The notes under the pieces: generated by a model
What the model was told of the DNA's origin: nothing
Seen by the model: the letters and a program-made list of their open reading frames with translations, nothing else
Databases searched by the model: none
IMG/VR virus record: IMGVR_UViG_3300008259_002461
Source: a virus
Lineage: Duplodnaviria; Caudoviricetes
DNA: 64,000 bases
Reading direction: 5' to 3' (one strand)
Made by a program: the position numbers and the translations under genes
Part shown: piece after piece, positions 12,647-62,425 of the stretch
Numbering within the stretch: position 1 is the first letter of the stretch
How the letters are laid out: the number at the start of each line of letters is the position of its first letter

Positions 12647-12648
12647 TG

Positions 12649-12656
12649 GATAAATA
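12649..12656 (+). promoter_or_regulatory. T4-late-like promoter motif GATAAATA
   Basis: In the 36-bp gap before ATG 12683. Confidence 0.5.
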
Positions 12657-12682
12657 CTACATCGCTTTAGGGGTTAAACATA

Positions 12683-18325: not shown

Positions 18326-19243
18326 ATGAAAATTTTAATGACTGGAACAAGCGGCTTTATAGGTCAACATTTAGAACCGTTGTTAAAAGAACAACACGAG
18401 ATTTATTCTTTAAAAAGCGACTTACTAGATTTTGATGCAGTTACAAAAGAAGTTTTAGACTTTCAGCCTGACATTATTGTACACCTTGCCGCACGTACAG
18501 AAGTAGAAAAAAGTTTTTACGAACAAATAACATTTAGTCAAATTAATTATGTAGGTAGTGTCAATTTAATTGAAACTGCAACAAAAATTCCTAATCTTAA
18601 AAACTTCGTGTTTGCAAGTACTATGGAAGTGTATGGTTGGCAACCTATTAGTGATATTGTCCAATCTGGTAGAGTTCCGGAAATATTTGAAGCTTTTGAC
18701 GAAAACACACCGCCCAATCCTAATGCGCCTTATGCTGTGGCTAAGTATGGAGTTGAAAAATATTTAGAATATGCACATCGTTGTTTAGAACTACCATTTA
18801 CTGCTATTAGACAAACAAACTGTTATGGCCGCAAGGATAATGAATTTTTTGTTACTGAACAAATTATTAGTCAGATGCTGGCTAATCCGTATGAAGCAGA
18901 GTTTGGATATGCAGAGCCATATCGTAACTTTATCTTTATCGATGACATGCTAAGTGCTTGGACTACTATTATCAATAATCCTGCACTAGTAAACACAGGA
19001 AAAATCTTAACTATTGGTCCAGATAATCCAATTAAGATTAGAGAATATGCAACTATAATTGCAAAGAAACTTAATTGGGATGGTAAAATACATTGGCATC
19101 GCAAACTACACCGTCCAGGAGAAATTTATTGGTTGAATAGTAATCATAATTTACTTACCAAGCTAACCGGGTGGACACCTAAAGTAAGTTTAAGTGACGG
19201 TCTTGACAAAACTATTGAAATTTGGAAAGAAAAATTAAAATGA
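18326..19243 (+). CDS. NAD-dependent nucleotide-sugar epimerase/dehydratase (extended SDR)
   Basis: TGTSGFIG Rossmann motif, VHLAA, STMEVYG, YAVAK (YxxxK), RNFIFIDD, WTPKVSLSDGL. Confidence 0.9.
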   Translation: MKILMTGTSGFIGQHLEPLLKEQHEIYSLKSDLLDFDAVTKEVLDFQPDIIVHLAARTEVEKSFYEQITFSQINYVGSVNLIETATKIPNLKNFVFASTMEVYGWQPISDIVQSGRVPEIFEAFDENTPPNPNAPYAVAKYGVEKYLEYAHRCLELPFTAIRQTNCYGRKDNEFFVTEQIISQMLANPYEAEFGYAEPYRNFIFIDDMLSAWTTIINNPALVNTGKILTIGPDNPIKIREYATIIAKKLNWDGKIHWHRKLHRPGEIYWLNSNHNLLTKLTGWTPKVSLSDGLDKTIEIWKEKLK

Positions 19244-39153: not shown

Positions 39154-39763
39154 TTATAATCTTATAAAGTTTTTCTGCGGCAATACTGTGTGAAATAGGA
39201 CCAGGATGACTGTTATCGCTTGCTAAATCAACAATGTTTAAAATATTACTATACAGAGTATTTTTACCAACAAATTTAGGTATACTTCCAAGATACTGTC
39301 CGGCAACAGAATCTAATATCTTATCCAATATAGAATCTGCATAAGACGGAGCCCAAAAATTACAATGTTTAATGCCTATACTATTCATATATAACTCTGC
39401 GTGATGTATATAAATTCCTGCTCTCACATTATTATCATAATTGCTATGTAGCTCAGTCCATTTTTTAAATAACGTACTATCTCTGCCTGGCGAAATTCTT
39501 ATATCTGGCAATAATTTATTAAACACTATATCTCTATGACAATATGTCCATCCTACAACAACTATATCATCTTCTTTAAATTTAAACGATAATATGTTAT
39601 TAAGTATTTCAAGATTACTACTTCCTGGAATACTTTTATTAACTACAGTCCGTTTAATAAGTTTACCTAAAACTACAGGCCATGCTTGTGATGAATCTGT
39701 TAGTCCGTAACCAGATGTAAACGAACACCCGAATGTTATAAGCCTTGACACTCTAATGCCCAC
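39143..39763 (-). CDS. SGNH/GDSL-like protein
   Basis: TFGCSFTSG, NKSIPGSSN, DNSHPG (DxxH); GTG start. Confidence 0.7.
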   Translation of the reverse strand: MGIRVSRLITFGCSFTSGYGLTDSSQAWPVVLGKLIKRTVVNKSIPGSSNLEILNNILSFKFKEDDIVVVGWTYCHRDIVFNKLLPDIRISPGRDSTLFKKWTELHSNYDNNVRAGIYIHHAELYMNSIGIKHCNFWAPSYADSILDKILDSVAGQYLGSIPKFVGKNTLYSNILNIVDLASDNSHPGPISHSIAAEKLYKIINEK

Positions 39764-40419
39764 TCACGTTCTTTACACCAGAAACAATTACCGCATACAG
39801 GAACATATTGTCCTGGTGTATATGTTGTATAATCTATATCTTCAAATTCGCCCTCACAACTACGAGTTAATTTTAAAAGGTCTTCAATGTTGTTTTTAAA
39901 ATACTGTTTTATTATCCAGTCTTTCATAGTATACACGAAAGGATGATAAATGTCAATACCCATATGTTTCATATGAATGGGTAACACGCCTTCATCTCTT
40001 TCTTTTAAAGCTCCTACTATATCTATATTTGGATTTTTAGTTACAGCAGAAAACCAAGCATCTAATTTATATGTATGAATTATGAATTCGTTATGGGCCC
40101 TAAGTATTATCCTATTACCTGGTTTAGTTTGTCCGTATTCGTCTTTAATATAGGTAGTATTTGGTTCTTCTAATTCTGGCGGAATAAACCCTTCGTGTCT
40201 TACAAATTTATTTTTTGGAAAACGCTTTTCTAACCATTTAAACACTTCCAAACTATTATGTCGTTGCCATGGTCGATTTTTCCAACATCTTACTTGACTA
40301 ACAATATGTATTTCTGCATCTGTTCTAAGACAAATTAGATAAGCAAGAAGTGCGCTATCAGCACCACCACTTAGACTTATTCCAATTTTTTGCCACGCAG
40401 GATTTATATAAAGTTCCAT
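39736..40419 (-). CDS. PP-loop ATP pyrophosphatase, QueC-like
   Basis: ISLSGGADS PP-loop; C-terminal RSC...CGNCFWC Zn-binding motif as in the QueC family. Confidence 0.7.
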   Translation of the reverse strand: MELYINPAWQKIGISLSGGADSALLAYLICLRTDAEIHIVSQVRCWKNRPWQRHNSLEVFKWLEKRFPKNKFVRHEGFIPPELEEPNTTYIKDEYGQTKPGNRIILRAHNEFIIHTYKLDAWFSAVTKNPNIDIVGALKERDEGVLPIHMKHMGIDIYHPFVYTMKDWIIKQYFKNNIEDLLKLTRSCEGEFEDIDYTTYTPGQYVPVCGNCFWCKEREWALECQGL

Positions 40420-42937: not shown

Positions 42938-43969
42938 ATGGAAAAAGGTATAGTTACATGGTTTAATGATGCTAAAGGCTTTGGATTTGTTAGAACAGAT
43001 CAAGGTGACGAAATAATCTGTGACAAGCGACACTTAATTACAGAACCAAAGACTATGAAGGAACTACAACAAATTTCTTTTGAGCGTGTAACTGTAAATG
43101 GCAGAGATCACGCAACTGTTATTTCTGTTATACGTGATGATGCTATAGCTAAACCCATTCTTACTATGAAAAACTGCAAAGTATATTCTATGATGCCGTT
43201 CATAGCTGTATTTGAAGATGTAGTATCTATTGATATGTGTAACGAAATAATAAACAAACATGTCTTAGATGGTATGAATCCTAATAGTGGCGGTCAATCA
43301 AGACAAGAAAGCTACACTCAAGTAACTGAAGATGTTGAAAATCGAGGAATTAGCCTAGGTATGGATCCGCATCATTACAACATTATTGCTAGAACTATCG
43401 TAGATAACATTGGTATACCTTATTCGTATATAGAAGCGATCGACATATACAATTATGAAGTAGGACAGTTCTTAGATCTACATCACGATTACCCTTATGA
43501 TCCTACGCAGATTAATTATTACAGTCACGGTGGTGATAGAGTTGGTACAGGTATTTTATATTTAAACGATAACTTTGACGGCGGCATTACTAGTTTCCCT
43601 AAATTAGATGTACACATTAAACCAAAAACTGGTTCAATGTTATATTTTAAACAAGGATACGAGGACGAAGCTATAAATTGGTCAACAATTCATGAAAGTA
43701 CACTAATAACCAAAGGTACTAAATGGGTAGCTAGTTGTTTTTTTAGTGCTAGTGAACGAATTGGATTTACTGACAGAGAAGATTTTGTTCCTCAGGAAAA
43801 TCCTCAACTACGTAACGAATTTTATGTTAAGAAGTTTATGGACATACAAAGGGGTAATATTCAACTTTATAGAAAATTAAAAAATCTTGAAACCAGTCCA
43901 TTAAGAACAAAAGTTGAAGAAGTGTTAGGTATAGACTTTTTTAAAAATATAGATGATTTAGTTAAATGA
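42938..43969 (+). CDS. Cold-shock domain fused to a prolyl-4-hydroxylase-like 2OG-Fe(II) dioxygenase
   Basis: GIVTWFNDAKGFGFV (CSD RNP1); YEVGQFLDLHHD...LYLNDNFDGG.T.FP...IHES...KGTKW (P4Hc). Confidence 0.85.
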   Translation: MEKGIVTWFNDAKGFGFVRTDQGDEIICDKRHLITEPKTMKELQQISFERVTVNGRDHATVISVIRDDAIAKPILTMKNCKVYSMMPFIAVFEDVVSIDMCNEIINKHVLDGMNPNSGGQSRQESYTQVTEDVENRGISLGMDPHHYNIIARTIVDNIGIPYSYIEAIDIYNYEVGQFLDLHHDYPYDPTQINYYSHGGDRVGTGILYLNDNFDGGITSFPKLDVHIKPKTGSMLYFKQGYEDEAINWSTIHESTLITKGTKWVASCFFSASERIGFTDREDFVPQENPQLRNEFYVKKFMDIQRGNIQLYRKLKNLETSPLRTKVEEVLGIDFFKNIDDLVK

Positions 43970-51629: not shown

Positions 51630-52627
51630 TTTTTATAAAATTTAATAGGCAAAACATTTTCTTCGGTCAATATTACTTCATTTTGAGATGACGGACACAT
51701 TGAACATTCACTAATTGGTTTATACTTAGAAATAGAAAAATTTTCTACTTCTTCGTCAGTACAATTAGTTAAGTCAAGAGGTTTGTATGCTAAAAATTTC
51801 TGCCATTCTTCGTCGTCGACTGCATTATGTCTTTCTAAAAAGTTTTTTAAAGTTCCTAATGCTGCACACTTATAAAGTTTTTTATTATACATAAATGTAC
51901 AGTAACAACTTGGACAGTTACCATAATAAGCCTTTTCAATATCCGTTGAGTTAAACGGTTTTGGTTTATTATCTTTCATGTAAAAATGTTTTAGATGGGA
52001 ATCTTGATCAATTGAAAGTACACCGTACTGGCCGTTCCACCAAAAGTCATCATCAGGCGGAATTGGTGATTTATTTTCTATAGCACAATAAGCATTATGT
52101 CTATAGTCCTTAACATCAATCCAATAATTCCTCCAACCATCAGTAGAGTCGTACATCATCTTTGACCAAAAATTCTCACTAGGAAGTTTTTGAATATCAA
52201 GTTTTTCTGTTAACACTTCAACGGCAGCTTTTATTCTATTTGATCGAGTCTTATCTTCAAATTGAATAAAGTGATCACTAACTAATATCATAACTTTATA
52301 CTTAACAATAATATTAGATAAGAAGTCTATGTTCTTATCGATAAGTTCGCCATTAGTTGGAATCCATACTGGTGTAGTTTGATCAAAGCTTCTAATAAAT
52401 TCTAGGAGTGATTCAATTCTGTCTTTGTATAACAGTGGTTCACCGCCTAGTAAACTATAGTGTTCAATATGAAACTTTTCTTTAGTTAACAGAATTCCTT
52501 CTTTGATTGTTTCAAGGTCAGGATCATGTTCTCCTTTTCTAATCAAGTCACTACGTGTATCACACTGTTGGCAGGCAATTTGACATTTATTGCCGTAAAA
52601 AATATCAAAAACTTTAAGATTGGGCAT
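51626..52627 (-). CDS. Radical SAM enzyme (#13, paralogue of 53404)
   Basis: Start refined to ATG 52627 (AGGA SD); CQIACQQC, LGGEP, PTNG, YKC...CSMCP. Confidence 0.88.
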   Translation of the reverse strand: MPNLKVFDIFYGNKCQIACQQCDTRSDLIRKGEHDPDLETIKEGILLTKEKFHIEHYSLLGGEPLLYKDRIESLLEFIRSFDQTTPVWIPTNGELIDKNIDFLSNIIVKYKVMILVSDHFIQFEDKTRSNRIKAAVEVLTEKLDIQKLPSENFWSKMMYDSTDGWRNYWIDVKDYRHNAYCAIENKSPIPPDDDFWWNGQYGVLSIDQDSHLKHFYMKDNKPKPFNSTDIEKAYYGNCPSCYCTFMYNKKLYKCAALGTLKNFLERHNAVDDEEWQKFLAYKPLDLTNCTDEEVENFSISKYKPISECSMCPSSQNEVILTEENVLPIKFYKK

Positions 52628-53360
52628 TATATTCCTTTTTATAACTTCTAGCAACGAGTTTAGTAAACTCACTTGTTTTATTTTCTAATTTACCGTGCGC
52701 AATTAAATGTATCCTAGACGTGTTAGATAAATTTATTACGCTATGATAATTTCTAATATTTATGATAAATGCTTTTCCGGTTTTAAATGGAACACATCCG
52801 TAACCGTCCAAGCTCATATAACATTCTTCTGGATGTACTAATGCTATGTTTATGGGAACTCCAAATTTGAGAGCATCAAAGTTTTCTTCACCAGGTAATT
52901 TACCAGGGGCATCACTATGCGGGCTAATATGCCCTCCTGCTTCCAATTCCATAAATCTTATTCTTCTATAAGTATCGTACGGAAAGTTCTTCCAAAATTC
53001 TTTAATTACAGGTGTTTTGGATGCTACCGGGGTCCAATCATATGGTACTTGATCTTCATGGGTGTAACCATACGAAGTCCATGCACCGGTGCTAGCCGCG
53101 TTTATACCGTGTATACAGCAACTATTCCACCCATGACTATCGCTTTCTCTATGAGGAACTAAATGTACTTTTGAATCCTCAGCTTCTTTAATCCATTTAT
53201 CAACATCAAACTCAATATCAAGTTCTAACCAACCAAAATTACTTTTGTTCAATAACCAATCTGCTATTTCATAATCAGTTTTCGCCCATTCAGGCATTTT
53301 AGGTAAGTTAGATTTTATATTTTTGTTTTTGTGATAAAAATCCAACGCAGTGGTATTCAT
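52614..53360 (-). CDS. Aspartyl/asparaginyl beta-hydroxylase-like Fe(II)/2OG oxygenase
   Basis: IRFMELEAGGHISPHSD...YHSVINLSNTSRIHLI. Confidence 0.8.
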   Translation of the reverse strand: MNTTALDFYHKNKNIKSNLPKMPEWAKTDYEIADWLLNKSNFGWLELDIEFDVDKWIKEAEDSKVHLVPHRESDSHGWNSCCIHGINAASTGAWTSYGYTHEDQVPYDWTPVASKTPVIKEFWKNFPYDTYRRIRFMELEAGGHISPHSDAPGKLPGEENFDALKFGVPINIALVHPEECYMSLDGYGCVPFKTGKAFIINIRNYHSVINLSNTSRIHLIAHGKLENKTSEFTKLVARSYKKEYNAQS

Positions 53361-53387: not shown

Positions 53388-53399
53388 TATTTATAAATA
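53388..53399. promoter_or_regulatory. Palindromic bidirectional T4 late consensus TATTTATAAATA
   Basis: Perfect 12-bp palindrome giving TATAAATA on both strands, between divergent genes 53360(-) and 53404(+). Confidence 0.7.
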
Positions 53400-53403
53400 G
53401 TTT

Positions 53404-54237
53404 ATGAACACAAAAATAAAAATCCCACATCTTGAGTGGCATGTTGCTCATGCTTGTAATCTATCTTGTAAAGGTTGTTGCCATCTTTCTGATTATGGGC
53501 AAAAAGGAATAGTTAGTTATAATGAGATCAAAGACTGGTATTCAAAATGGAGTCATAGACTAGCACCAAAATCAATAGACATTTTAGGGGGAGAACCTTT
53601 ATTAAACAAAGATATCTGTAAAATTATTTCTTTAACAAGAGAAATGTGGGATGATCCGTATCTAGAACAATTACAATTAACAACTAACGGACTTTTAATT
53701 CACAAATTTCCAGATTTACCTAAAGTATTAAAAGATTCTAATTGTTCTATTTCAGTGTCTTGGCATAGTGAAGATCCAAGTTATAATAAATTGTTTGATA
53801 AATCTAAAAACATTTTAAATGAATGGGTAGAAAAATACGGAATCCAAGTTCGTATACTAGATTTTTATAATTATTGGACTCCATTTTATAAAGGTTACGG
53901 TAGCACTATGGAACCGTTTAACGAAGAAAACTTTGAAAAAAGTTGGGATAATTGTATAACGGGACAAGATTGTTTTCAGATATATAATGGCGATATTTAT
54001 AAATGCTCAAATTTAGCGTACTTGCCTATGACTAAACAAAAAATTAATCTTTCAGAGAATTGGGATTATTATCTAAGTTATGTTCCACTAAAGCCGGAAG
54101 CTTCGGACAATGAAATTACAGAGTTTTTTAATAAAGGTGCAGAAAAATTTTGTAGTATGTGTCCCAATTCAGTTGAAATGATTAAAAAACCAGATCCTTT
54201 AAAATTTCGTAAACAAATACTGATGAAGAAAATTTGA
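53404..54237 (+). CDS. Radical SAM enzyme (#14, paralogue of 51626)
   Basis: CNLSCKGC, LGGEP, TTNG, YKC...CSMCP. Confidence 0.9.
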   Translation: MNTKIKIPHLEWHVAHACNLSCKGCCHLSDYGQKGIVSYNEIKDWYSKWSHRLAPKSIDILGGEPLLNKDICKIISLTREMWDDPYLEQLQLTTNGLLIHKFPDLPKVLKDSNCSISVSWHSEDPSYNKLFDKSKNILNEWVEKYGIQVRILDFYNYWTPFYKGYGSTMEPFNEENFEKSWDNCITGQDCFQIYNGDIYKCSNLAYLPMTKQKINLSENWDYYLSYVPLKPEASDNEITEFFNKGAEKFCSMCPNSVEMIKKPDPLKFRKQILMKKI

Positions 54238-55442
54238 TTATGAAACAAGGAAGATTAATAAACTTTGAATTACTGTGGGATACTGACCTAAGCGTCAATG
54301 TTGTATTACCAAAACTACTTGAATTAGAATTTCAAGAAGCAGTAGCTGACGGAGTAACTACCATTTTTGGAATGTTTTTAATGGAGGGAATTTATCCGCA
54401 TGATTGTCATAATCAACAACTGTTTTTAGAAATTAAAAAAATAGCTGACAAATACAATTTAGAAGTTATTCTATTGTCAGGCCTTGGAGAAAGTTTTAAC
54501 AATCAGTATAGTATAGAAAATGGTAGTATTTTAAACAATCTTCCATTTGAGGTAATATACTCATCATATCCTTTAAGAGTATGTTACAACATCATTAATA
54601 ATATTCCTAGAAAATCAAAAACTATCAATAATAAGTTTTTATTCTTAGGTGGAATTCCTACTAGATTAAATAGAATTTATTTATTAAGTAAGTTGTATGA
54701 AAACAATCTTTTAATAAATGGTAAATGGTCATTTTTTATTCCGTTATCCCAAGAAGATAAAAATTATTGCAGAAATTTATTATCACATTATTCAGATGAA
54801 GAGTACGAAACTTTTTTAAAAAACTGTACTAGCTCAATAGATGAAAAATATCAAGAAATGGCTAACTTTTTTCAAGACTATGCACCGTACGAAGAAGGCG
54901 ATCTTGAAAAGTGGGGCGAAATAGTTCATACTGATTTTTGGAAAAATCCTATATACATAGATCCTGAAGTTTACGATGAAACTTCGTTAAGTATAATTTC
55001 TGAAGGTCCAAATTATTGGTCGCCTGATTATAAATTTATTACAGAAAAAACATGGCGGACAATAATTTATAAGCATCCTTTTATATTTGCAGGCCCGCCT
55101 GAACAGTTTAGATATATTAAACAAATGGGATTTGAAACATTTGAAAAATATATGCTTATTCAAAATTATGCACAGGTGGAAGATGAAAAAGAAAGAATTG
55201 AATTGATTGTTAAAAATGTAGAACATTTTTTAAAACACCAAACTTATCATCAAAAAGAAATACAACAAGATATTGAACATAATTTTAACTTATTCTTAAA
55301 ACTAGCCAATGATCAAAATTGTCTACTAACATCTTTAAAATCAAAATACAATATTCCTGATGCTGAGTTTTCAAAATTTTTTAGTACAACCGGCTATGAA
55401 AATTTGATTAGGCCCGTTGCCGACCTCAAAAAATTAGGCTAG
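54234..55442 (+). CDS. Putative glycosyltransferase (GT10/fucosyltransferase-like motif)
   Basis: SIISEG...FITEKTW...HPFIFAG...GFETF resembles the GT10 ENS...YITEK region; near-duplicate of 56406. Confidence 0.45.
   Translation: MIMKQGRLINFELLWDTDLSVNVVLPKLLELEFQEAVADGVTTIFGMFLMEGIYPHDCHNQQLFLEIKKIADKYNLEVILLSGLGESFNNQYSIENGSILNNLPFEVIYSSYPLRVCYNIINNIPRKSKTINNKFLFLGGIPTRLNRIYLLSKLYENNLLINGKWSFFIPLSQEDKNYCRNLLSHYSDEEYETFLKNCTSSIDEKYQEMANFFQDYAPYEEGDLEKWGEIVHTDFWKNPIYIDPEVYDETSLSIISEGPNYWSPDYKFITEKTWRTIIYKHPFIFAGPPEQFRYIKQMGFETFEKYMLIQNYAQVEDEKERIELIVKNVEHFLKHQTYHQKEIQQDIEHNFNLFLKLANDQNCLLTSLKSKYNIPDAEFSKFFSTTGYENLIRPVADLKKLG
54999..55120 (+). repeat. Degenerate direct duplication, copy 1 (copy 2 at +2160 bp)
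   Basis: Identical blocks TCTGAAGGTCCAAATT, ATTACAGAAAAAACATGGCG, CATCCTTTTATATTTGC and TTTAGATATATTAA recur colinearly at 57159-57280. Confidence 0.8.
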
Positions 55443-55474
55443 CATCATATTCGTAGTTATCAATAGTGTATGGT

Positions 55475-55482
55475 TATAAATA
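55475..55482 (+). promoter_or_regulatory. T4 late consensus TATAAATA
   Basis: Exact match in the 68-bp gap before ATG 55511. Confidence 0.6.
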
Positions 55483-55510
55483 AGTTTATGACTATATCTG
55501 TTAGACTATC

Positions 55511-56425
55511 ATGAAAAATAATTACGATAAACGGCATCTTCCTTTTGGACATTCTACAGCTATACAAGACAAAGAAACATTATCTTTTATCAATAATTGT
55601 AGTATCTCAACACAAACATTAAACGATCAAACAATTAACGAACAATTCCTTAGCAAGTATGTAGAATGGATATTGACTACAACAAATAACAAAGTAACTG
55701 GTATTGATCAGTATCCATTCAAATGTTTTTCGCAAGGGACATCTGAAGCGTTTGAAAAATTTTATATGAATTATTCTCATAGAAGATTTCGATGTTTTAA
55801 AGGCGAGTATGTTTATCATAAATTAGCTTGGAGAGATGATAGATTTAATTGGAAATACTTAGAGGATGATGCGCTTGATGCCAATGACGTAGTAATAATT
55901 AGTCAACCTTTTTCTGATACAGGCGATCAGCATCCTTTACTTAATGATATTTTAGATCAATGTGACAAACTAAATATTCCTGTAGTACTTGATTGTTGCT
56001 ACTTTGGTATTTGTAGTAATATAAATTTTGATTTTACAAGACCTTGTATAAAAGAAATCATCTTTAGTTTATCTAAAACTTTTCCAGTAGCTCATATTAG
56101 AATAGGTATGCGTCTTTCAAGGATTGATAATGACGATTTGTTATTTGTGTATAACAAAAGTGGCTACACAAATAGATTAGCAGCAAGTATAGGACTTAAT
56201 CTTATTAATCATTTTGATTCTGACTACATAGTTAATAAGTATAAAAATAAACAAATTGAAATCTGTAAAAAATTAAATGTAACTCCTAGCAATACTGTGT
56301 TGTTTGGAATAGGCGGCTCTGAATGGCAGGAATACAATCGTGATAGAGCTACTAACAGATTAGGATTACATAATTTTTTACACATGGAAGATACAGAGTG
56401 CTTAGATGAATATGTCAAAATCTAA
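55511..56425 (+). CDS. PLP-dependent aminotransferase-like enzyme (class I/II fold)
   Basis: QGTSEAF, VVLDCCY, FSLSKTFPVAHIRIG matching the S.SK...RIG PLP-lysine motif. Confidence 0.8.
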   Translation: MKNNYDKRHLPFGHSTAIQDKETLSFINNCSISTQTLNDQTINEQFLSKYVEWILTTTNNKVTGIDQYPFKCFSQGTSEAFEKFYMNYSHRRFRCFKGEYVYHKLAWRDDRFNWKYLEDDALDANDVVIISQPFSDTGDQHPLLNDILDQCDKLNIPVVLDCCYFGICSNINFDFTRPCIKEIIFSLSKTFPVAHIRIGMRLSRIDNDDLLFVYNKSGYTNRLAASIGLNLINHFDSDYIVNKYKNKQIEICKKLNVTPSNTVLFGIGGSEWQEYNRDRATNRLGLHNFLHMEDTECLDEYVKI

Positions 56426-57593
56426 AATTATAAATTTTGAATGGATGTGTGATCACAATCATTACACCCATGAACAATTTGATAAAATTAAAACTGATTT
56501 AATTAAAAAAGACATTGATCAAGCCATAGATGAAAATGTTGATACTGTTGTAGGGCTTTATCTAATGGATGGGTTTTTACAACCTAAGTATAGATACAAA
56601 GAGTTTATTTTGCACCTAAACGAAATAAAAGATTATGCTTACAATGCTGGAATTAAAAAAATAATTCTAATAAGTGGCCATGGCGAAACATTAGATAATT
56701 GTCCCTTTGAATACCTGTTTTTAGATTTTAATCTTAGATTATTAATTAATAGCTATCCTGATCTAAATGTATTACCTAAATTCAATCCTGAAAATACAAA
56801 GTTTCTCTTTTTAACTGGCATGCCAAATAGACCTAATCGTATAGGTCTATTGAGCAAGTACTATGATAAAGATTTATTAGACACTGCTGAGTGGAGTTTT
56901 TTTGGCCCATGGACACCTATGGATCAATCTTGGTGTAGAGAATATCTTAAACATTATAGTGATGAACACTACAATACATTTTTAATTAATTGTGAAAGAT
57001 CTTTTGATAATAGATATGAAACGTGTAAGCCATTCTATGGATCGTATACTTCAACGGAAAATGCACCGCTATGGTATGATGTAGTTAATATTGACTGGGT
57101 TCAATTACCCAGTCATATTGATTCTAAAGTATATAGCGATACACTTTTTAGTGTTATATCTGAAGGTCCAAATTTTTGGTCTGAAGATTGGAGTTTCATT
57201 ACAGAAAAAACATGGCGAACTTTTTTACATCGTCATCCTTTTATATTTGCCGGGCACCCTGATCAATTTAGATATATTAAGAAACTTGGATTTAAAACAT
57301 TTGAAGAATATTTGTTAATCAAAGATTACGCCTATATTGAAGATGAAAATGAAAGACTAGATGCTGTAGTCAAAAATACAGAATACTTATTAAAAAATAT
57401 AAAAAATAATTTAGATGCTATAGAAAAAGACGTAGAATATAATTATCAAATGTATTTTAATCATGTAAACAATCAGGATAAAATTTTTAAATTCTTAAAG
57501 CACGATTTAAATGTTTCGTCAGATGATATCCAGCCATATGCTAATATCAAAGGTTATCCGTATCTCATTAGGAGAATACCTGATGGATTCTAA
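56406..57593 (+). CDS. Putative glycosyltransferase (GT10-like motif; paralogue of 54234)
   Basis: SVISEG...FITEKTW...HPFIFAG...GFKTF; KFLFLTGMPNRPNRI. Confidence 0.45.
   Translation: MNMSKSKIINFEWMCDHNHYTHEQFDKIKTDLIKKDIDQAIDENVDTVVGLYLMDGFLQPKYRYKEFILHLNEIKDYAYNAGIKKIILISGHGETLDNCPFEYLFLDFNLRLLINSYPDLNVLPKFNPENTKFLFLTGMPNRPNRIGLLSKYYDKDLLDTAEWSFFGPWTPMDQSWCREYLKHYSDEHYNTFLINCERSFDNRYETCKPFYGSYTSTENAPLWYDVVNIDWVQLPSHIDSKVYSDTLFSVISEGPNFWSEDWSFITEKTWRTFLHRHPFIFAGHPDQFRYIKKLGFKTFEEYLLIKDYAYIEDENERLDAVVKNTEYLLKNIKNNLDAIEKDVEYNYQMYFNHVNNQDKIFKFLKHDLNVSSDDIQPYANIKGYPYLIRRIPDGF
57159..57280 (+). repeat. Degenerate direct duplication, copy 2
   Basis: Colinear with 54999-55120. Confidence 0.8.
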
Positions 57594-58515
57594 ATGTGCA
57601 GCTTTCTGGAAACATACTAATGTTCGTAGCGATAACAAAATATTTCCCTGTTGTAGATTTAAGAATCCTGTAGATAATTTCAACGGCGATTTAATTCATA
57701 TATTAGAGTCCAGTGCATATAAAGAACTTAGAAAAAAAAGTTTAAACGGTGAATTTATCCAAGGTTGCGAAAAATGCTATTACGAAGATGCCAACGGTAG
57801 GCAAAGTCTTCGACAACGATTAAACAAAGAATATACTACTGACACAGTTGAATTAGAATTTTTAGAAATAGGGTTTGACAATATATGTAATTTAACCTGT
57901 GACGGATGCTGGAGTGATTTTAGTTCCGAGTGGAGTAAAAAACTTAACCCTACTGCAAACAAGATTACTCACTATCGTTCAGTTGATGAGATTGTTAAAG
58001 TTCCGTCTAGTATTAAAAAAATACTCTTTTTAGGCGGTGAACCTTTAATGACCAACCGGCATGAAAAGTTTTTAAAACTAATTGAAAATCCAGCAGCAGT
58101 TGAAATAATTTACAACACTAACGGAATGTTTTTGTTAAAAGAAGAATTTATTAATTTTTTACATCAGTTTAAATCGGTAAAATTTACGTTAAGTATTGAT
58201 GGGTACAAAGATCTAAATAACAAAGTTAGATCTGGAAGTAAGTGGGAAGATATTTTAAGTTTTATAGAACAGATATCTAAATCTAACTTTGATCTAGAAG
58301 TGAATACAGTGTTACATTTAAATAACTGGCACGGAATAAAGGAGCTTGAATCCTTTATACAACAATTAGGAGTACCGTGGATAGTAAATGTTTTAACATA
58401 TCCTACACATTTAGATATTTCTAATTTTGAACAAAAGGAACAAATTATTAATTTGATTAGCGAAACAAACATTCCAAATAAAACTTATGTCATTAACCAT
58501 CTATTACATAATTAA
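57583..58515 (+). CDS. Radical SAM enzyme with N-terminal twitch domain (#15)
   Basis: Start refined to ATG 57583 (AGGAG SD); KCAAFW...PCC...CEKC, CNLTCDGC, LGGEP, NTNG. Confidence 0.9.
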   Translation: MDSKCAAFWKHTNVRSDNKIFPCCRFKNPVDNFNGDLIHILESSAYKELRKKSLNGEFIQGCEKCYYEDANGRQSLRQRLNKEYTTDTVELEFLEIGFDNICNLTCDGCWSDFSSEWSKKLNPTANKITHYRSVDEIVKVPSSIKKILFLGGEPLMTNRHEKFLKLIENPAAVEIIYNTNGMFLLKEEFINFLHQFKSVKFTLSIDGYKDLNNKVRSGSKWEDILSFIEQISKSNFDLEVNTVLHLNNWHGIKELESFIQQLGVPWIVNVLTYPTHLDISNFEQKEQIINLISETNIPNKTYVINHLLHN

Positions 58516-58530
58516 TAAAAGGAGTTATTT

Positions 58531-59151
58531 ATGAGTTCAGAATTTTATCAGTATTTTGATTATCCAAATTGGTTAGAACATCAAAAAAAATTGTTAGCAT
58601 ATAGACAATTAAAGATGGCTGACATCGTAACTGACAATCAATCATGGGCTGCGTTAAACTATGATGAATTTTCTATGGATTTAAAAGATGTTATTGACGA
58701 TTATGCACAGCTTGGTCTATACATAAAACAGTTAATTTTTATATCTTTCCCCCCTACTGATTTAAATTCTACAGACATGAATGATCCAAAAACAATTTAT
58801 ATACATGTTGACAGTAAGGATGACGATGAACATTTGTTAAAGGAATCAGCTCCTACATTGTTTTCTCCAAGATATGTATTTAATATTCCATTAATAAATT
58901 GTGAAAACAGTACTACGTTTTTTTATGATTTTATAGATCCAAATAAACACACAAAAGACACTCATGTATATTTTGGAGGTTGTGTCGATTACAGTAATGT
59001 AGTTGAAGTGGATAAATTTACTCTTAACAAACCTGCATTTCTAAAAGTTAGTGTTCCCCATGCAGTGCATAATCCTACTGATAGTTTAAGAATTGTTTGT
59101 AGTATGCGTGTTGATGATAGTAGTCCATTACTAAAAAGGCTTTTCAAATGA
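58531..59151 (+). CDS. Putative Fe(II)/2OG oxygenase (cupin-type)
   Basis: AGGAG SD; IHVD...NIPL...PHAVHN...RIVCS. Confidence 0.6.
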   Translation: MSSEFYQYFDYPNWLEHQKKLLAYRQLKMADIVTDNQSWAALNYDEFSMDLKDVIDDYAQLGLYIKQLIFISFPPTDLNSTDMNDPKTIYIHVDSKDDDEHLLKESAPTLFSPRYVFNIPLINCENSTTFFYDFIDPNKHTKDTHVYFGGCVDYSNVVEVDKFTLNKPAFLKVSVPHAVHNPTDSLRIVCSMRVDDSSPLLKRLFK

Positions 59152-59723
59152 CATCAACTATAAGCTGTAAACGGTATATTGAATATAACAAGATTATTAG
59201 TGCTGTAGATTCAATGGCTAAAAAAGTTGCAGAATTTAGAGAAACTATGTCAAGTGATATGTACGACTTGACTCAAGTTGACCCGGCTCCTGATTTAACA
59301 GACATACATCCTAGAGATAGAAAAAATGTTAAAATTCTTTGCGGTGCTTTGCCCTTTGATGGAAAACCAAACTTAGGCAAACTATTAAAAGAAGAATCAG
59401 ATATACTAACAAATTTAAAAGGATATTCTGCTGGGTTTGTTTTCTTTATGACTCCAAATTCAATCTTACCATTACATGTACACGGCGAATATGTAGCGAA
59501 AGATTCAAACGATACAATAGGAGTTTGGAATGCCTGTTTTGGAATTACAGTACCGTCGACAGATTCTAACATGGTAGGTATAGAAGTAAACGGTGAAGTT
59601 TATTCTCATGGTCATAATGTAGATGTAACATTTGACCCACAAACACCGCATCAAGCATGGAACCACACTAACGAGTGGTGGACTATGTTAATCTTAAATA
59701 TTGATAAGAGATTTTTTATTTAA
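59148..59723 (+). CDS. AspH-like/cupin oxygenase
   Basis: MTPNSILPLHVH...FDPQTPHQAWN. Confidence 0.6.
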   Translation: MTSTISCKRYIEYNKIISAVDSMAKKVAEFRETMSSDMYDLTQVDPAPDLTDIHPRDRKNVKILCGALPFDGKPNLGKLLKEESDILTNLKGYSAGFVFFMTPNSILPLHVHGEYVAKDSNDTIGVWNACFGITVPSTDSNMVGIEVNGEVYSHGHNVDVTFDPQTPHQAWNHTNEWWTMLILNIDKRFFI

Positions 59724-59733
59724 AGGAAATATT

Positions 59734-60792
59734 TTGAAAATATCAACAAATAATCATTGGGATCCATTAGAAGAAATAATTGTAGGCATAGCTGATCATG
59801 CACGAGTGCCTACAGTGGACAGAAGCACCATGAATATGAGCTACAGTAACTATAGTATGGATAGTGTTAAACCTTTAGAAGGAGCATATCCTCAATGGTT
59901 AATTGATGAAGCTAACGAAGACTTGGAAGGATTGGCTACCGCGCTAAGAAAAGCCGGAGTTAAAGTACATAGACCAAAGCCGTTAGATCACAGTAAACAG
60001 TTTAGTACACCAGAGTGGCAAACTACTGGTTGGTATACTTGGTGTCCTAGAGACTTACTGTTGCCGTTAAAAAATCTAATTATTGAAACGCCTAGTGGGT
60101 GTCGTTCTAGATATTTTGAAACTAGGGCATATCACGATATAATGTTAGAAGCAGTTCGAGATGGAGTTGAATGGATAGCAGCACCTAAACCTATTCTATT
60201 AGATGAAGGCTATCAATTTGAAGATATACAAGGAAAGCCAAGTTTATTAAATTTAGAACCTATATTTGATGCTCCTAACTGTGTGCGTTTGGGTAAAGAT
60301 ATTTTATTTCAAATTTCAAACACTGGTAATCATTTAGGAATGCAATGGTTAAAAAATGTGCTTGAACCTAGAGGTTATAGAATACATGCGGCAGAGCATA
60401 TTTACAGTTTTGCTCATATGGATAGTACCATCGTTCCTTTAAGTCCGGGGAAAGTTTTGTTAAATAGTACTAGAGTCACGCCTGAAAATTGTCCTAAGAT
60501 ATTTGAAAAATGGGATAAGATATGGTTTAAAGATGTAAATATTAATCCTACTACAGAAACCGGACCAGGCAGTATCAGTCCGTGCAGTCCGTATATAGGA
60601 ATGAATATTTTAAGTATAAACCCTAGTACAGTAATAGTAGGCGAAGATCAGATTAATTTAACAAGAGTTTTAGAAAAACAAGGATTTGATGTAGTACATG
60701 TAAAAATGCGGCACGCTCAAACACTTAGTGGCGGACTTCATTGTACTACTTTAGATTTAAGAAGAACAGGATCGTTAGAGGATTATACATGA
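59734..60792 (+). CDS. Amidinotransferase (glycine/inosamine-phosphate amidinotransferase family)
   Basis: Start refined to TTG 59734 (AAGGA SD); WDPLEEIIVG, CPRD, FDAPN, HMDST, GGLHCTT (Cys-His-Asp triad motifs). Confidence 0.9.
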   Translation: MKISTNNHWDPLEEIIVGIADHARVPTVDRSTMNMSYSNYSMDSVKPLEGAYPQWLIDEANEDLEGLATALRKAGVKVHRPKPLDHSKQFSTPEWQTTGWYTWCPRDLLLPLKNLIIETPSGCRSRYFETRAYHDIMLEAVRDGVEWIAAPKPILLDEGYQFEDIQGKPSLLNLEPIFDAPNCVRLGKDILFQISNTGNHLGMQWLKNVLEPRGYRIHAAEHIYSFAHMDSTIVPLSPGKVLLNSTRVTPENCPKIFEKWDKIWFKDVNINPTTETGPGSISPCSPYIGMNILSINPSTVIVGEDQINLTRVLEKQGFDVVHVKMRHAQTLSGGLHCTTLDLRRTGSLEDYT

Positions 60793-61283
60793 TTGAGTTT
60801 GTAACAAATATAAAAGATTTTTGGTCAACTGATTTAGAAAAATTTGTCTTTCCAGTTATGTCACCTCTTAACACTAATGTAAGAGATTATTGGAATCATC
60901 CTAATTTTCAAAATGCCAAACCTCTCTTGCAAGCATTTGACAATGATTTACCAGAGTATTGGAATAAATTTCTAATTGAGCTAGGTACAACAGAAGGTAC
61001 AGTATCTTGGACTAACCTAGTACCGGGTCAAGTCCTACCTGTTCATACTGATGAGTTTTATAAACTAAGAACCAAGTACAATGTTGATATAGAAAAATGT
61101 AGAAGATATTTAATTTTTCTAAATGATTGGGTACTTGGACATTCTGTTGATTTTGAAGAAAAGACTATAACAAGATGGAAGTGTGGAGATGTTTGGTTAT
61201 TTGATCATCGTTCATTCCACTGCGCCGCTAATGCTTCTACAGTAGATTTTATAACCTGTCAGGTTAATACTATTACGATTTAA
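60789..61283 (+). CDS. Fe(II)/2OG oxygenase, AspH-like
   Basis: Start refined to ATG 60789; VPGQVLPVHTD...FHCAANAS...CQV. Confidence 0.7.
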   Translation: MIEFVTNIKDFWSTDLEKFVFPVMSPLNTNVRDYWNHPNFQNAKPLLQAFDNDLPEYWNKFLIELGTTEGTVSWTNLVPGQVLPVHTDEFYKLRTKYNVDIEKCRRYLIFLNDWVLGHSVDFEEKTITRWKCGDVWLFDHRSFHCAANASTVDFITCQVNTITI

Positions 61284-62425
61284 GGATTTAGAGGATATAG
61301 TGGAAGTGCATAATCTACGCCATCAACTATAATTCTAATATATTTAACTGTTCCACCTGTATTAACTTCGCCGGAACCAGCACCAGCTACTATTGAATTA
61401 TCTTGTATTCCGATAATCCCCTCGCTGTCTATAGATAACATAGTAACAAGTTCTTCTGTAGCATTTACACAACCTAATTCTATTCTACCTGGAATATACC
61501 CAGCACCCGGAGTGTCATCTACAAAAATTTGAATACCGGCTACTACAGCAGGACTACCGTTGCTATCTGCACCAAGCCAGTATTGACTAACAATTTTATC
61601 ACCAATTTGAAGTGGCAATGGTGTTTCATGCGTTCCTCTATATCTACTATACAATACTGCTGGCCCTTCTACAGTATTAGAAGCGCCATAGATAGACATA
61701 GCGTCATACGCATCGTCCGCAGTACCAGTAGTATATACAGCTAATCCTGCTAAAGTACCGTTATTATTTTGTCCTGATAATGTAATTGTAGCACCGTTAA
61801 CATCTTTAGTAGTAATGGCAATATTATCAACTTCGCCAACAATTTTTCCAGCTACTGAATCAACAAGAGTGCTAGAATCATCAGCAAAAACAGAACCTGT
61901 TAAATCGCCTATGATTTCTCTTGCAGTAAGTGTATCAGTTTCTGCGTCCCATAGCACTAAATTACTATCTGCTGAGCCGCTTGAGAGTTTAATAATTTGT
62001 GAACCAACTGCTAACGTAGTGTCTACGTTTGCTTGAGTAGCCCAAAGATTACGCCACTGTTTGGCACTTGTACCTAAATTATAAGAATCGTCAATGGCTG
62101 GAGTCAGTGACGAATTAATTAAACCAAGTACACTGATATTGTCGGTTGCATTGTCACCTAAGTTAATAGATCCAGTAGCAGTAATATTACCAGTAATATT
62201 AATGTTACCTGTGCCTATTATGTTATTACCGTTTAAGTTTAAATTGCCGCCCAGCAGTGGACTTGTTTCAGTTGAAAGGGCAGTTGGGCCAACGAGAATA
62301 CCACCTGTAGTAGCTCCGTCGCCTACAAATAACTTTTTCGTATCAGTAACGTAGACAATTTCGCCTATGTCTACGAATGCAGTAACACGTTCTGCTTCAG
62401 TACCGCGTCTTAATTTCAAAGCCAT
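61280..62425 (-). CDS. Tail fibre-like protein with Mtd_N/hyaluronidase-type N-terminal domain
   Basis: LKLRRGT...GEIVYVTDTKKLFVGDG..GG; ETSPLLGGNLNLNGNNI fibre motif; AGGAG SD. Confidence 0.75.
   Translation of the reverse strand: MALKLRRGTEAERVTAFVDIGEIVYVTDTKKLFVGDGATTGGILVGPTALSTETSPLLGGNLNLNGNNIIGTGNINITGNITATGSINLGDNATDNISVLGLINSSLTPAIDDSYNLGTSAKQWRNLWATQANVDTTLAVGSQIIKLSSGSADSNLVLWDAETDTLTAREIIGDLTGSVFADDSSTLVDSVAGKIVGEVDNIAITTKDVNGATITLSGQNNNGTLAGLAVYTTGTADDAYDAMSIYGASNTVEGPAVLYSRYRGTHETPLPLQIGDKIVSQYWLGADSNGSPAVVAGIQIFVDDTPGAGYIPGRIELGCVNATEELVTMLSIDSEGIIGIQDNSIVAGAGSGEVNTGGTVKYIRIIVDGVDYALPLYPLNP

Follow-up and report, generated by a model that had tools for sequence, protein, structure and literature searches.

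The stretch of DNA analyzed here (64,000 nt; hereafter, the window) comes from a jumbo phage of lake origin and carries a late-type operon whose core is a streptomycin-type amidinotransferase, in a cassette common to hundreds of uncultured phages. A sequence-only reading had described a gene series at 55511–61283 behind an exact TATAAATA, and we confirm that this series is a real feature. The motif lies at 55475–55482 (+), ahead of the PLP gene, and domain and fold assignments bear out the succession of PLP, GT-like, radical SAM, amidinotransferase and final small oxygenase genes. The unit is wider than had been thought, however: its true start is at 53404, so that a radical SAM gene and a GT-B paralogue (53404–55442) belong to it.

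All genes of the unit lie on the plus strand. They encode radical SAM enzyme A (53404–54237, 277 aa; PF04055, E 7.9e-10), a first GT-B-fold protein (54234–55442, 402 aa), a PLP fold-type I, class I/II aminotransferase-like enzyme (55511–56425, 304 aa), a second GT-B-fold protein that is a putative glycosyltransferase (56406–57593, 395 aa), radical SAM enzyme B with an N-terminal twitch/SPASM-like Cys domain (57583–58515, 310 aa), a possible cupin oxygenase (58531–59151, 206 aa), an Asp/Arg-hydroxylase-type cupin (59148–59723, 191 aa), the L-arginine-type amidinotransferase (59734–60792, 352 aa) and a small double-stranded beta-helix Fe(II)/2OG-type oxygenase (60789–61283, 164 aa). As previously claimed, the operon ends against a fiber gene, which is convergent and has an Mtd_N domain (61280–62425, minus strand; PF18454, E 2.3e-9). 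Chance does not account for the gene order, as these genes are found again near the amidinotransferase in 80 viral contigs.

The motif TATAAATA, of the T4 late-promoter type, is rarer in the window than expected from shuffles (5 copies versus 15.7), and the copy at 55475–55482 leaves 28 nt to the ATG at 55511. In the 186-kb genome piece from which the window derives, 8 of 10 copies precede an ORF with an ATG start by 4–38 nt, and one of these eight ORFs is a baseplate-hub gene. Between divergent genes at the start of the unit, the palindromic TATTTATAAATA (53388–53399) holds two back-to-back copies, at 53392 (+) and 53395 (−); the minus-strand copy is 27 nt before the ATG of 52614–53360 (−) and the plus-strand copy only 4 nt ahead of 53404. 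Judged by this arrangement, TATTTATAAATA is likely a bidirectional T4-type late promoter. An exact TATAAATA is found upstream of the amidinotransferase in only 15/80 related loci. The Mtd_N fiber gene is also a neighbor in several relatives (L003, L007, L096–L099), and in more distant relatives the cassette is placed between T4 gp15-like and gp13-like genes. In one lake metatranscriptome, short contigs match parts of the PLP, amidinotransferase and fiber genes exactly; they lend weak support to the reading of the cassette proposed below, since they may represent DNA carry-over.

By homology, the product of 59734–60792 is unambiguously a true amidinotransferase. The ORF extends from 59701, and translation is placed at the TTG at 59734, behind an AAGGA ribosome-binding site. 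Its PDB matches are StrB1 (1bwd, E 1.1e-93), HsvA (5e-65), SxtG (5e-60) and AGAT (5e-59); in this search with the phage enzyme, StrB1 scores 317 bits versus 203–223 bits for the HsvA/SxtG/AGAT-type enzymes, and on that measure it is the nearest solved relative, matching over the full length at about 45% identity. The full catalytic motifs noted earlier are present: D118, R137, D190, H239, D241 and C348 correspond to StrB1 D108, R127, D179, H227, D229 and C332, and all six are kept in 78–79 of 79 viral homologues. Pfam assigns the protein to PF02274, a family named ADI, and many homologues carry the JGI label “N-dimethylarginine dimethylaminohydrolase,” names that would suit a hydrolase of the arginine deiminase or DDAH type. 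We nevertheless regard such an activity as highly improbable: the match to StrB1 spans the whole protein and its catalytic set, amidinotransferases account for every PDB match at E up to 1, with no deiminase or DDAH among them, and the coupling to an amine-forming PLP enzyme in 74/80 loci implies an amine acceptor. In the amidinotransferase tree, the phage enzymes group in a clade of their own, outside that of actinomycete StrB1, and we rejected the possibility that the phage enzyme is a StrB1 orthologue.

The conserved surroundings were examined in 80 IMG/VR loci, with amidinotransferases 53–85% identical, taken from more than 385 relatives. In 73–74 of the 80, the gene immediately upstream of the amidinotransferase is the PLP gene, and in 58–71 the small oxygenase lies downstream; the minimal recurring unit consists of these three genes only. 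A 394-aa GT-B family is found upstream of the PLP gene in 55/80 loci and a nucleotide-sugar SDR (PF16363, E 4e-43) 2 kb downstream of the amidinotransferase in 40/80, while a B12 radical SAM gene is present in 22/80 and the radical SAM A family accompanies the amidinotransferase in 21–23/80. Unrelated amidinotransferases keep similar company in independent lineages, together with glycosyltransferase, radical SAM and 2OG genes, in S-SCSM2R ORF305–310 and CP220 gp080–089.

The PLP enzyme is class I/II-like (HisC/CobD-like), not DegT/StsC-like. Its PF00155 score, 19.6 bits, is just below the 19.7 cut-off; its Atlas model matches PF00155 clusters at TM 0.76–0.79. The SxSK lysine Lys189, Asp161, Tyr164 and Arg197 are kept in 74–76 of 76 homologues, and the C-terminal Arg283, typical of carboxylate binding, is invariant. 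The usual sugar aminotransferases are of the DegT family, to which this enzyme does not belong. The adjacency of the PLP and amidinotransferase genes (74/80 viral loci) backs the earlier proposal that an amine is made and then amidinated.

The acceptor could be an amino acid, a protein residue or some other amine. In this case, the PLP enzyme would make or decarboxylate an amino acid (e.g., one of the Lys/Orn type or a hydroxylated one), and amidination would turn the result into a guanidino compound, either an amino acid or an amine; it might resemble homoarginine or agmatine, or be a polyamine amidinated in the manner of HsvA. Such a compound might be used free (e.g., as a counter-ion for capsid DNA), or the chemistry might act on fiber residues, with AspH-like hydroxylases and SPASM-type radical SAM maturases taking part. 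The class I/II character of the PLP enzyme with its Arg283, the resemblance of the cupins to Asp/Asn hydroxylases, the small size of the minimal unit and the match to HsvA, which amidinates polyamines, all speak for this possibility. So do the fusions seen in the wider amidinotransferase family, to HalD, TauD, an NRPS A-T module and a class II aaRS-like domain; because these join it to amino-acid enzymes, amino-acid acceptors are common in the superfamily. Amino-acid chemistry leaves unexplained, however, the GT-B and NDP-sugar SDR genes of 55 and 40 loci as well as epimerase–GT-B fusions, and the unit contains neither a precursor peptide nor an amino-acid ligase. We know of no pentein amidinotransferase that acts on proteins. 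On balance, we consider an acceptor of this kind unlikely.

The sugar-related genes favor a sugar acceptor instead. The protein of 56406–57593 matches no family in Pfam or CAZy, and the putative GT-B assignment rests on an AF2 model (pLDDT 71), for which nearly all of the top 50 chains in VIA-align are GT-B glycosyltransferases (Z 8.3–11.2 over about 250–275 residues). Only three columns of the family are ≥93% conserved. The two GT-B paralogues of the window are 39% identical (E 9e-101), both are carried by one relative (L008), and in the Atlas the same fold is fused to an NDP-sugar epimerase/GDP-Man-dehydratase domain in other phages. Within the same island as the unit, 36 kb upstream of the PLP gene, the window encodes an extended-SDR nucleotide-sugar epimerase/dehydratase (18326–19243, +; PF01370, E 4e-37; PF16363, E 1e-33). 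Its PDB matches are UDP-Glc 4-epimerase, dTDP-Glc 4,6-dehydratase and GDP-6-deoxy-Man reductase, and it shares 67% identity with the SDR family found near the amidinotransferase in viral loci. No sugar-1-phosphate nucleotidyltransferase was found in the unit.

The best fold matches of the GT-B protein include the T4 alpha- and beta-glucosyltransferases (Z 11.1 and 10.2, scores equaled by many others), which raises the possibility of DNA hypermodification, in which a modified base would bear a sugar or aminoalkyl substituent whose amidination yields a guanidino nucleobase that blocks restriction; PLP and radical SAM enzymes do occur in thymidine hypermodification pathways. Such DNA decoration, one of the products suggested from the sequence alone, is disfavored because a complete (100%) relative of 363,943 bp with the cassette has neither PF00303 (TS/dCMP-hydroxymethylase) nor PF01702 (TGT/DpdA), and PF00303 is also absent from the window’s own 186-kb piece. 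The late motif and structural setting would also sit poorly with the early timing usual for DNA-modification enzymes. We therefore deem it very improbable.

Among the remaining enzymes, radical SAM B has a CxxxCxxC motif and matches NF033640 (212 bits, above its cut-off of 170), PF04055 and PF13186; an AGGAG ribosome-binding site precedes its ATG at 57583, within a longest ORF from 57511, and its relatives have 305–310 aa and are 51–60% identical. Radical SAM A is 39% identical to ORF306, the radical SAM gene beside the amidinotransferase of cyanophage S-SCSM2R. Of the two oxygenases previously proposed ahead of the amidinotransferase, 59148–59723 is borne out by PF05118 (27.1 bits, above the 22.6 cut-off), whereas 58531–59151 is unproven as an oxygenase, since it offers only an HxD...H motif and weak language-model leads to PF05118 and PF13640; it has no Pfam or PHROG match and falls into a virus-only family in the Atlas. 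Both are variable inserts outside the core, the former being clade-specific (before the amidinotransferase in 10/80 loci, all close relatives) and the latter near it in 1/80. The small oxygenase at 60789–61283 (ORF from 60741; AF2 pLDDT 86) has an invariant H86, D88 and H144, and Foldseek relates it to AsqJ, AspH and proline hydroxylases (E about 4e-6 to 1e-4).

From the enzyme families, catalytic residues, gene neighborhood and promoter motif, we infer the substrates, step order, product and target of a pathway to a guanidino sugar, a reading that we think somewhat more probable than an even chance would make it. The extended SDR, likely the first enzyme, would provide an NDP-keto-sugar, which the PLP enzyme would transaminate to an NDP-amino-sugar. 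The amidinotransferase would then move the amidino group of L-arginine to the amine via a Cys348 thio-uronium, releasing ornithine. Further tailoring by the radical SAM pair, the extra cupins and the small Fe/2OG oxygenase may bring hydroxylation, oxidation, epimerization or C-methylation, and the two GT-B paralogues would hand the guanidino (N-amidino-amino) sugar on, most probably to virion proteins (fiber, neck, tail). We favor this target in view of the structural genes around the cassette and the T4-type late-promoter motifs ahead of it, and the sugar itself because the GT-B family and the SDR travel with the amidinotransferase. The most likely product is thus a guanidino sugar that carries a positive charge and is destined for a glycan. 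Several points weigh against this reading: in the literature searched, no nucleotide-linked guanidino sugar of natural origin came up; the PLP enzyme is not of the DegT family; the GT-B assignment is one of fold; the SDR is distant from the PLP gene in the window; the unit has no sugar-1-phosphate nucleotidyltransferase; amino-acid acceptors are common in the superfamily; and few related loci have the exact TATAAATA.

The initial interpretation is therefore upheld in part. Its amidinotransferase and its order of amine formation before amidination stand, and among its product options the guanidino sugar is favored; its alignment with the StrI/StsC/StrB1 route does not hold. The streptidine pathway was rejected, as the unit has no StsC-type aminotransferase, inositol dehydrogenase or kinase. 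A broader version has the cassette produce a small molecule of the aminocyclitol or aminoglycoside kind (a streptidine-type “antibiotic” or effector) that the phage would release or direct at competitors or the host. It draws on StrB1 as the closest solved relative and on a parallel in butirosin biosynthesis, where BtrN and BtrS likewise pair a radical SAM twitch enzyme with an aminotransferase. BtrN, however, is missing from the radical SAM PDB matches, the phage clade falls outside that of actinomycete StrB1, and the unit lacks an inositol-phosphate synthase/cyclase, an inosamine kinase and a DegT/StsC-type aminotransferase. The authors of the S-SCSM2R study did term ORF305, 306 and 309 antibiotic-synthesis genes (PMC12801897). 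With the late structural-gene setting repeated in hundreds of lytic-type phage contigs, virion decoration fits better than a secreted metabolite, and we judge the small-molecule proposal quite improbable.

Set against known systems, the phage enzyme has full-length homology and identical catalytic residues to StrB1, the Streptomyces griseus L-arginine:inosamine-phosphate amidinotransferase (1BWD), but its neighbors are class I/II PLP, GT-B, radical SAM and cupin genes rather than StrI, StsC and kinase genes, and its acceptor is probably not inosamine phosphate. HsvA (Erwinia amylovora, 5WPI), SxtG and the AGAT/CyrA-type enzymes share its superfamily and catalytic mechanism; their acceptors are polyamines, an arginine-derived ketone and glycine, respectively.

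Phage amidinotransferases have been mentioned in the literature, with function tested in neither source. Campylobacter phages CP220 and CPt10 have an interchangeable module of radical SAM and “glycine amidinotransferase” genes (Timms et al. 2010, PMC2853527), in which a myovirus amidinotransferase likewise lies among several radical SAM and glycosyltransferase-fold genes with no function assigned. That amidinotransferase is only 35% identical, in a different clade and of separate origin, its neighbors with glycosyltransferase folds bear the annotation of nucleotide-diphospho-sugar transferases, and at this locus the window’s module proteins find matches in the radical SAM genes and the amidinotransferase only. 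In Synechococcus phage S-SCSM2R, ORF305–310 comprise PLP-family, radical SAM, glycosyltransferase, 2OG oxygenase, amidinotransferase and glycosyltransferase genes, with a 2OG oxygenase 28% identical to 60789–61283; yet its amidinotransferase is only 34% identical and elsewhere in the tree, and its PLP gene is annotated as AHBA-synthase/DegT-like. An annotated amidinotransferase and a 2OG oxygenase of this cultured phage were detected in CsCl-purified virion preparations (PMC12801897), which speaks for the cassette reading favored here.

Bacterial deoxy-amino-sugar routes follow the same logic of NDP-hexose dehydratase/SDR, PLP aminotransferase, N-modification and glycosyltransferase, but here the N-tailoring is a proposed pentein amidination, for which no precedent on a sugar nucleotide was found in the searched literature, and the aminotransferase is not of the DegT family. 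For the proposed virion-protein target, a precedent comes from mycobacteriophages, whose glycosyltransferases decorate virion proteins according to Freeman et al. 2023, as cited in PMC12619734.

The window lies within a genome piece of 185,762 bp, estimated to be about 52% complete, from an uncultured jumbo phage of fresh water. Seven co-directional, mostly overlapping + strand genes fill 55511-61283 downstream of an exact TATAAATA at 55475-55482, and a convergent fibre gene with an Mtd_N domain (61280-62425, - strand) closes the operon. The seven genes are, in order, a PLP enzyme (55511-56425), a GT-B protein (56406-57593), a radical SAM enzyme (57583-58515, hereafter radical SAM B), a 206-aa protein (58531-59151), a 191-aa protein (59148-59723), an amidinotransferase (59734-60792) and a small Fe/2OG-type oxygenase (60789-61283). 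Based on ribosome-binding sites and the lengths of relatives, the likely true starts are TTG 59734, ATG 57583 and ATG 60789. The unit itself begins at 53404, behind a palindromic TATTTATAAATA, since a related contig (L008) has all of the genes from 53404 to 61283; this longer unit includes a second GT-B protein (54234-55442, + strand) that is a paralogue of the first at 39%. The operon described in the sequence-only reading is confirmed, and the interpretation given there, that the phage makes an amidino- or guanidino-modified sugar or amino acid, is supported in part only.

The cassette is the last portion of a ~47-kb island (14213-61283) flanked by fibre genes. The island has ~17 radical SAM genes, which fall into several paralogue groups, alongside several cupins, SDR genes, methyltransferase-like genes and numerous family-less proteins. 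At 42938-43969, a single protein joins a cold-shock (CSD) domain (E 4.5e-8) to a 2OG-Fe(II) oxygenase domain (E 3.4e-10); as the former is a nucleic-acid-binding domain, the fusion suggests an oxygenase directed at RNA or DNA. Also inside the island, 39736-40419 (- strand) has a weak QueC-like match that is under the cut-off (PF06508, E 0.0055) and may be an ATP-pyrophosphatase-type amidotransferase. A very long ORF (1-8052), which is open at the window start and encodes at least 2,683 aa, is followed by three paralogous fibre-like genes (8691-14185) and may be a candidate target of the island enzymes.

The amidinotransferase (59734-60792) is clearly identified by its sequence. A PDB sequence search at E up to 1 gave seven matches covering residues 14-362, all of them amidinotransferases and none a deiminase or DDAH; the best is StrB1 (1BWD), matched over its full length at E 1.1e-93, followed by HsvA, SxtG and AGAT at E 5e-65 to 5e-59. 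Residues D118, R137, D190, H239, D241 and C348 align exactly with StrB1 D108, R127, D179, H227, D229 and C332, which we take to be its catalytic set. The Cys-His-Asp triad (C348, H239, D190) and the substrate-binding residues (D118, R137, D241) are kept in 78-79 of 79 viral homologues, so the earlier statement that the enzyme has full catalytic motifs was right. By homology and residues, the protein is a predicted member of the amidinotransferase family (StrB1, AGAT, SxtG, HsvA) within the pentein/guanidino-group-modifying superfamily. That it acts as a hydrolase in practice is a reading to which we give almost no credence, as the PDB matches, all to amidinotransferases, and the linkage to an amine-forming enzyme both contradict it. 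Many homologues bear the JGI label "dimethylarginine dimethylaminohydrolase", which is probably wrong given these matches and the retained catalytic set. Five distant homologues (P0133, P0134, P0136, P0141, P0228) are fusions to class II aaRS-like, TauD, FAD oxidoreductase, NRPS A-T or HalD-type halogenase domains and look like unexplored amino-acid guanidinylation systems.

Relatives of this enzyme are encoded on more than 385 viral contigs, and more than 120 protein clusters, found on phage-like contigs that reach 365 kb, are 72-94% identical to it. In our tree, these clusters form one clade (SH-aLRT 99), with a 3.7-kb contig listed under Synechococcus lacustris and two metagenomic proteins as sisters; for AGAT, CyrA and SxtG, the relative distance was taken from PDB bit scores. 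Actinomycete StrB1 sequences (Streptomyces griseocarneus, S. fimbriatus, S. rameus, Nocardia) form a clade of their own, separate from the phage one. This separation bears on the streptidine analogy (StrI/StsC/StrB1) drawn in the sequence-only reading. Family searches of 53404-61283 found no inositol dehydrogenase (StrI), DegT-type aminotransferase (StsC) or inosamine kinase, and the PLP enzyme is class I/II-like. With the enzyme outside the StrB1 clade and its partner genes absent, the analogy fails, and a streptidine-like small molecule is a quite improbable product.

Cyanophage S-SCSM2R and Campylobacter phage CP220 have amidinotransferases that branch elsewhere in the tree, which implies that at least three phage lineages gained such an enzyme independently. 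A megablast of 53404-61283 against cultured phage records returned no match, and the best cultured-phage amidinotransferase found by tblastn is only 34-35% identical. The phage cassette also turns up on three short contigs (L007, L008 and L009) assigned to a Puniceispirillum MAG, a Verrucomicrobiales MAG and the Synechococcus lacustris Tous assembly. Their enzyme is 57-85% identical and has phage neighbours; the probable origin of these contigs is phage DNA that was binned together with cellular sequence. The contig from S. lacustris may be a hint that the host of one sub-lineage is a picocyanobacterium.

The key evidence is the neighbourhood. We counted neighbours in 80 IMG/VR loci that carry the enzyme at 53-85% identity, drawn from the more than 385 relatives. 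The PLP gene lies directly upstream of the amidinotransferase in 73-74 of these loci and the small oxygenase downstream in 58-71; a 394-aa GT-B family is found upstream of the PLP gene in 55, an extended-SDR nucleotide-sugar epimerase/dehydratase (PF16363, E 4e-43) ~2 kb downstream in 40, and a B12 radical SAM gene further downstream in 22. Among close relatives, the gene order PLP, GT-B, radical SAM B, amidinotransferase, small oxygenase is conserved. The 206-aa gene (1/80) and the 191-aa gene (10/80) are variable inserts. In more distant relatives, the cassette is flanked by a gene for a T4 gp15-like tail-sheath stabiliser on one side and a weakly gp13-like neck gene on the other. At 22 viral loci of these more distant T4-like relatives (L130:11641-13497 and 21 others), the SDR is followed by a 618-aa B12-binding radical SAM enzyme of a type typical of C-methylases; no counterpart was seen in 53404-61283. 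In the window, an SDR at 18326-19243 is 67% identical to the cassette-linked SDR family, and the solved structures closest to it are those of UDP-glucose 4-epimerase, dTDP-glucose 4,6-dehydratase and GDP-6-deoxymannose reductase. The Atlas further contains phage proteins that fuse the cassette GT-B fold to an epimerase/GDP-mannose-dehydratase domain. When module proteins were searched by tblastn against 80 further loci, nearly all bacterial with StrB1-like genes, no PLP, GT-B, radical SAM B or cupin partner appeared in the bacterial loci, and within this sample the cassette looks virus-specific.

The PLP enzyme (55511-56425) falls just under the PF00155 cut-off (19.6 bits vs 19.7), and its Atlas model (pLDDT 0.88) has a TM of 0.76-0.79 to aminotransferase clusters that are 100% PF00155. 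In its SxSK motif, S186, S188 and K189 are conserved in 76/76 homologues, as is R197, with D161 conserved in 75 and Y164 in 74. The fold-type I cofactor set (Schiff-base Lys, pyridine-N Asp, Tyr, and a phosphate-binding Arg 8 residues past the Lys) is complete, and K189 lines up with the SLTK lysine of CobD 1lc5, presumably the PLP lysine of that enzyme. We predict a fold-type I PLP enzyme that is class I/II-like and not of the DegT type. Such an enzyme would also suit an amino acid, polyamine or protein residue as the amidino acceptor, and so would the amidinotransferase relatives fused to HalD, TauD, NRPS A-T and aaRS-like domains. However, an acceptor of this kind would leave the linkage to GT-B and SDR genes unexplained, and we consider it unlikely.

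For the GT-B protein at 56406-57593, which has no sequence family (a Pfam search relaxed to E 10 gave no match), the putative glycosyltransferase assignment is by fold alone. Its AF2 model has a pLDDT of only 71, yet the top 50 chains are nearly all GT-B glycosyltransferases (Z 8.3-11.2, ~250-275 residues aligned); a Foldseek search of the model against the PDB gave nothing at E up to 0.001. Membership in GT10, for which the Atlas lead was only 0.78, was dropped, as neither the relaxed Pfam search nor an hhalign comparison with a phage protein annotated as GT10 (probability 0.3) gave a link.

Radical SAM B (57583-58515) has the CxxxCxxC motif as CNLTCDGC and matches NCBIfam NF033640, an N-terminal twitch subfamily, at 212.4 bits vs the curated cut-off of 170; its PDB sequence matches are generic (Tes, MoaA), with BtrN absent from them. 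The small oxygenase (60789-61283) is predicted to fold like Fe/2OG oxygenases: its model is a double-stranded beta-helix (pLDDT 86) matching AsqJ, AspH and proline hydroxylases at E ~4e-6, and its H-x-D...H metal triad (H86, D88, H144) is invariant, as is R106, a possible 2-oxoglutarate-binding residue. Of the two insert proteins, the 191-aa protein matches PF05118 above the cut-off and aligns weakly with the small-oxygenase family by hhalign (E 0.013), and the 206-aa protein has an HxD...H motif and a weak language-model lead only, its hhalign comparison with the same alignment being not significant.

What the analysis establishes is the enzyme families, residues, synteny and motif; the substrates, order of steps, product and target proposed here are our inference. 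The SDR would make an NDP-keto sugar, which the PLP enzyme would transaminate; the amidinotransferase would then form a guanidino sugar by transferring the amidino group of arginine to the new amine; further tailoring would fall to the oxygenases and radical SAM enzymes; and the GT-B enzymes would transfer the sugar, probably to virion proteins, a target suggested by the late-promoter motif and the structural-gene setting. We lean, with modest confidence, towards this route from SDR through PLP enzyme, amidinotransferase and tailoring to GT-B. Its weak points are that no nucleotidyltransferase was found in the unit, that the PLP enzyme is not DegT-type, that GT-B is assigned from fold, and that amidinotransferase relatives are fused to amino-acid enzymes. 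As to the target, decoration of DNA, also raised in the sequence-only reading, is disfavoured: a 100%-complete relative of 363,943 bp carries the cassette and has no thymidylate-synthase-like or TGT/DpdA gene, making DNA hypermodification very improbable. The broader proposal that hundreds of lake and sea T4-like and jumbo phages carry on their virions a glycan with a guanidino sugar, which a StrB1-type amidinotransferase would make on a nucleotide-sugar carrier, is tentative, and we regard it as possible rather than probable. We found no report of such a natural sugar modification in the literature searched.

The motif TATAAATA is depleted, with 5 copies in the window vs 15.7 expected and 10 in the whole 185,762-bp piece. 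Eight of these 10 lie 4-38 nt 5' of an ORF that starts with ATG, in one case a baseplate-hub gene; this rarity and positioning fit a predicted T4-type late promoter. As an exact copy occurs upstream of the amidinotransferase in only 15/80 related loci, late expression should not be generalised to the whole family. At nine related loci (L154, L162, L171 and six more), an exact copy is immediately 5' of the amidinotransferase start (offset 22-46 nt in three of them) and would be an internal late-type promoter for that gene alone. Eight short exact contigs across the PLP, amidinotransferase and fibre genes in one lake metatranscriptome, where DNA carry-over is possible, give a weak hint of expression; such contigs cannot show transcript starts, and uncovered parts of the locus carry no meaning. 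Three tiny RNA libraries had no exact contigs of the locus. The exact stretch is present in lake and freshwater metagenomes from many studies between 2017 and 2025, possibly including its own source.

If the guanidino-sugar reading is true, previously undescribed sugar chemistry is produced and placed on virions by a phage cassette that is very common and strongly conserved, and phage surface modifications gain a new kind. The particle surface would acquire a permanent positive charge like that of arginine, which would have consequences for adsorption, host range or defence evasion, and a new biocatalyst to guanidinylate sugars would become available. In surveys of viral auxiliary metabolic genes, the reading would also set right the automatic labels of creatine biosynthesis, DDAH or antibiotic synthesis given to these genes.

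Comparable modules have been noted in cultured phages. Campylobacter phages carry a radical SAM and amidinotransferase module whose function was left unassigned (Timms et al. 2010, PMC2853527). An analogous module is present in the cultured cyanophage Synechococcus phage S-SCSM2R; the 2025 paper on this phage named the module genes antibiotic-synthesis genes, and another annotated amidinotransferase and a 2OG oxygenase were detected in its purified virion preparations (PMC12801897). The cassette is a variation on known kinds, phage glycan clusters and amidinotransferases, with potentially new sugar chemistry.
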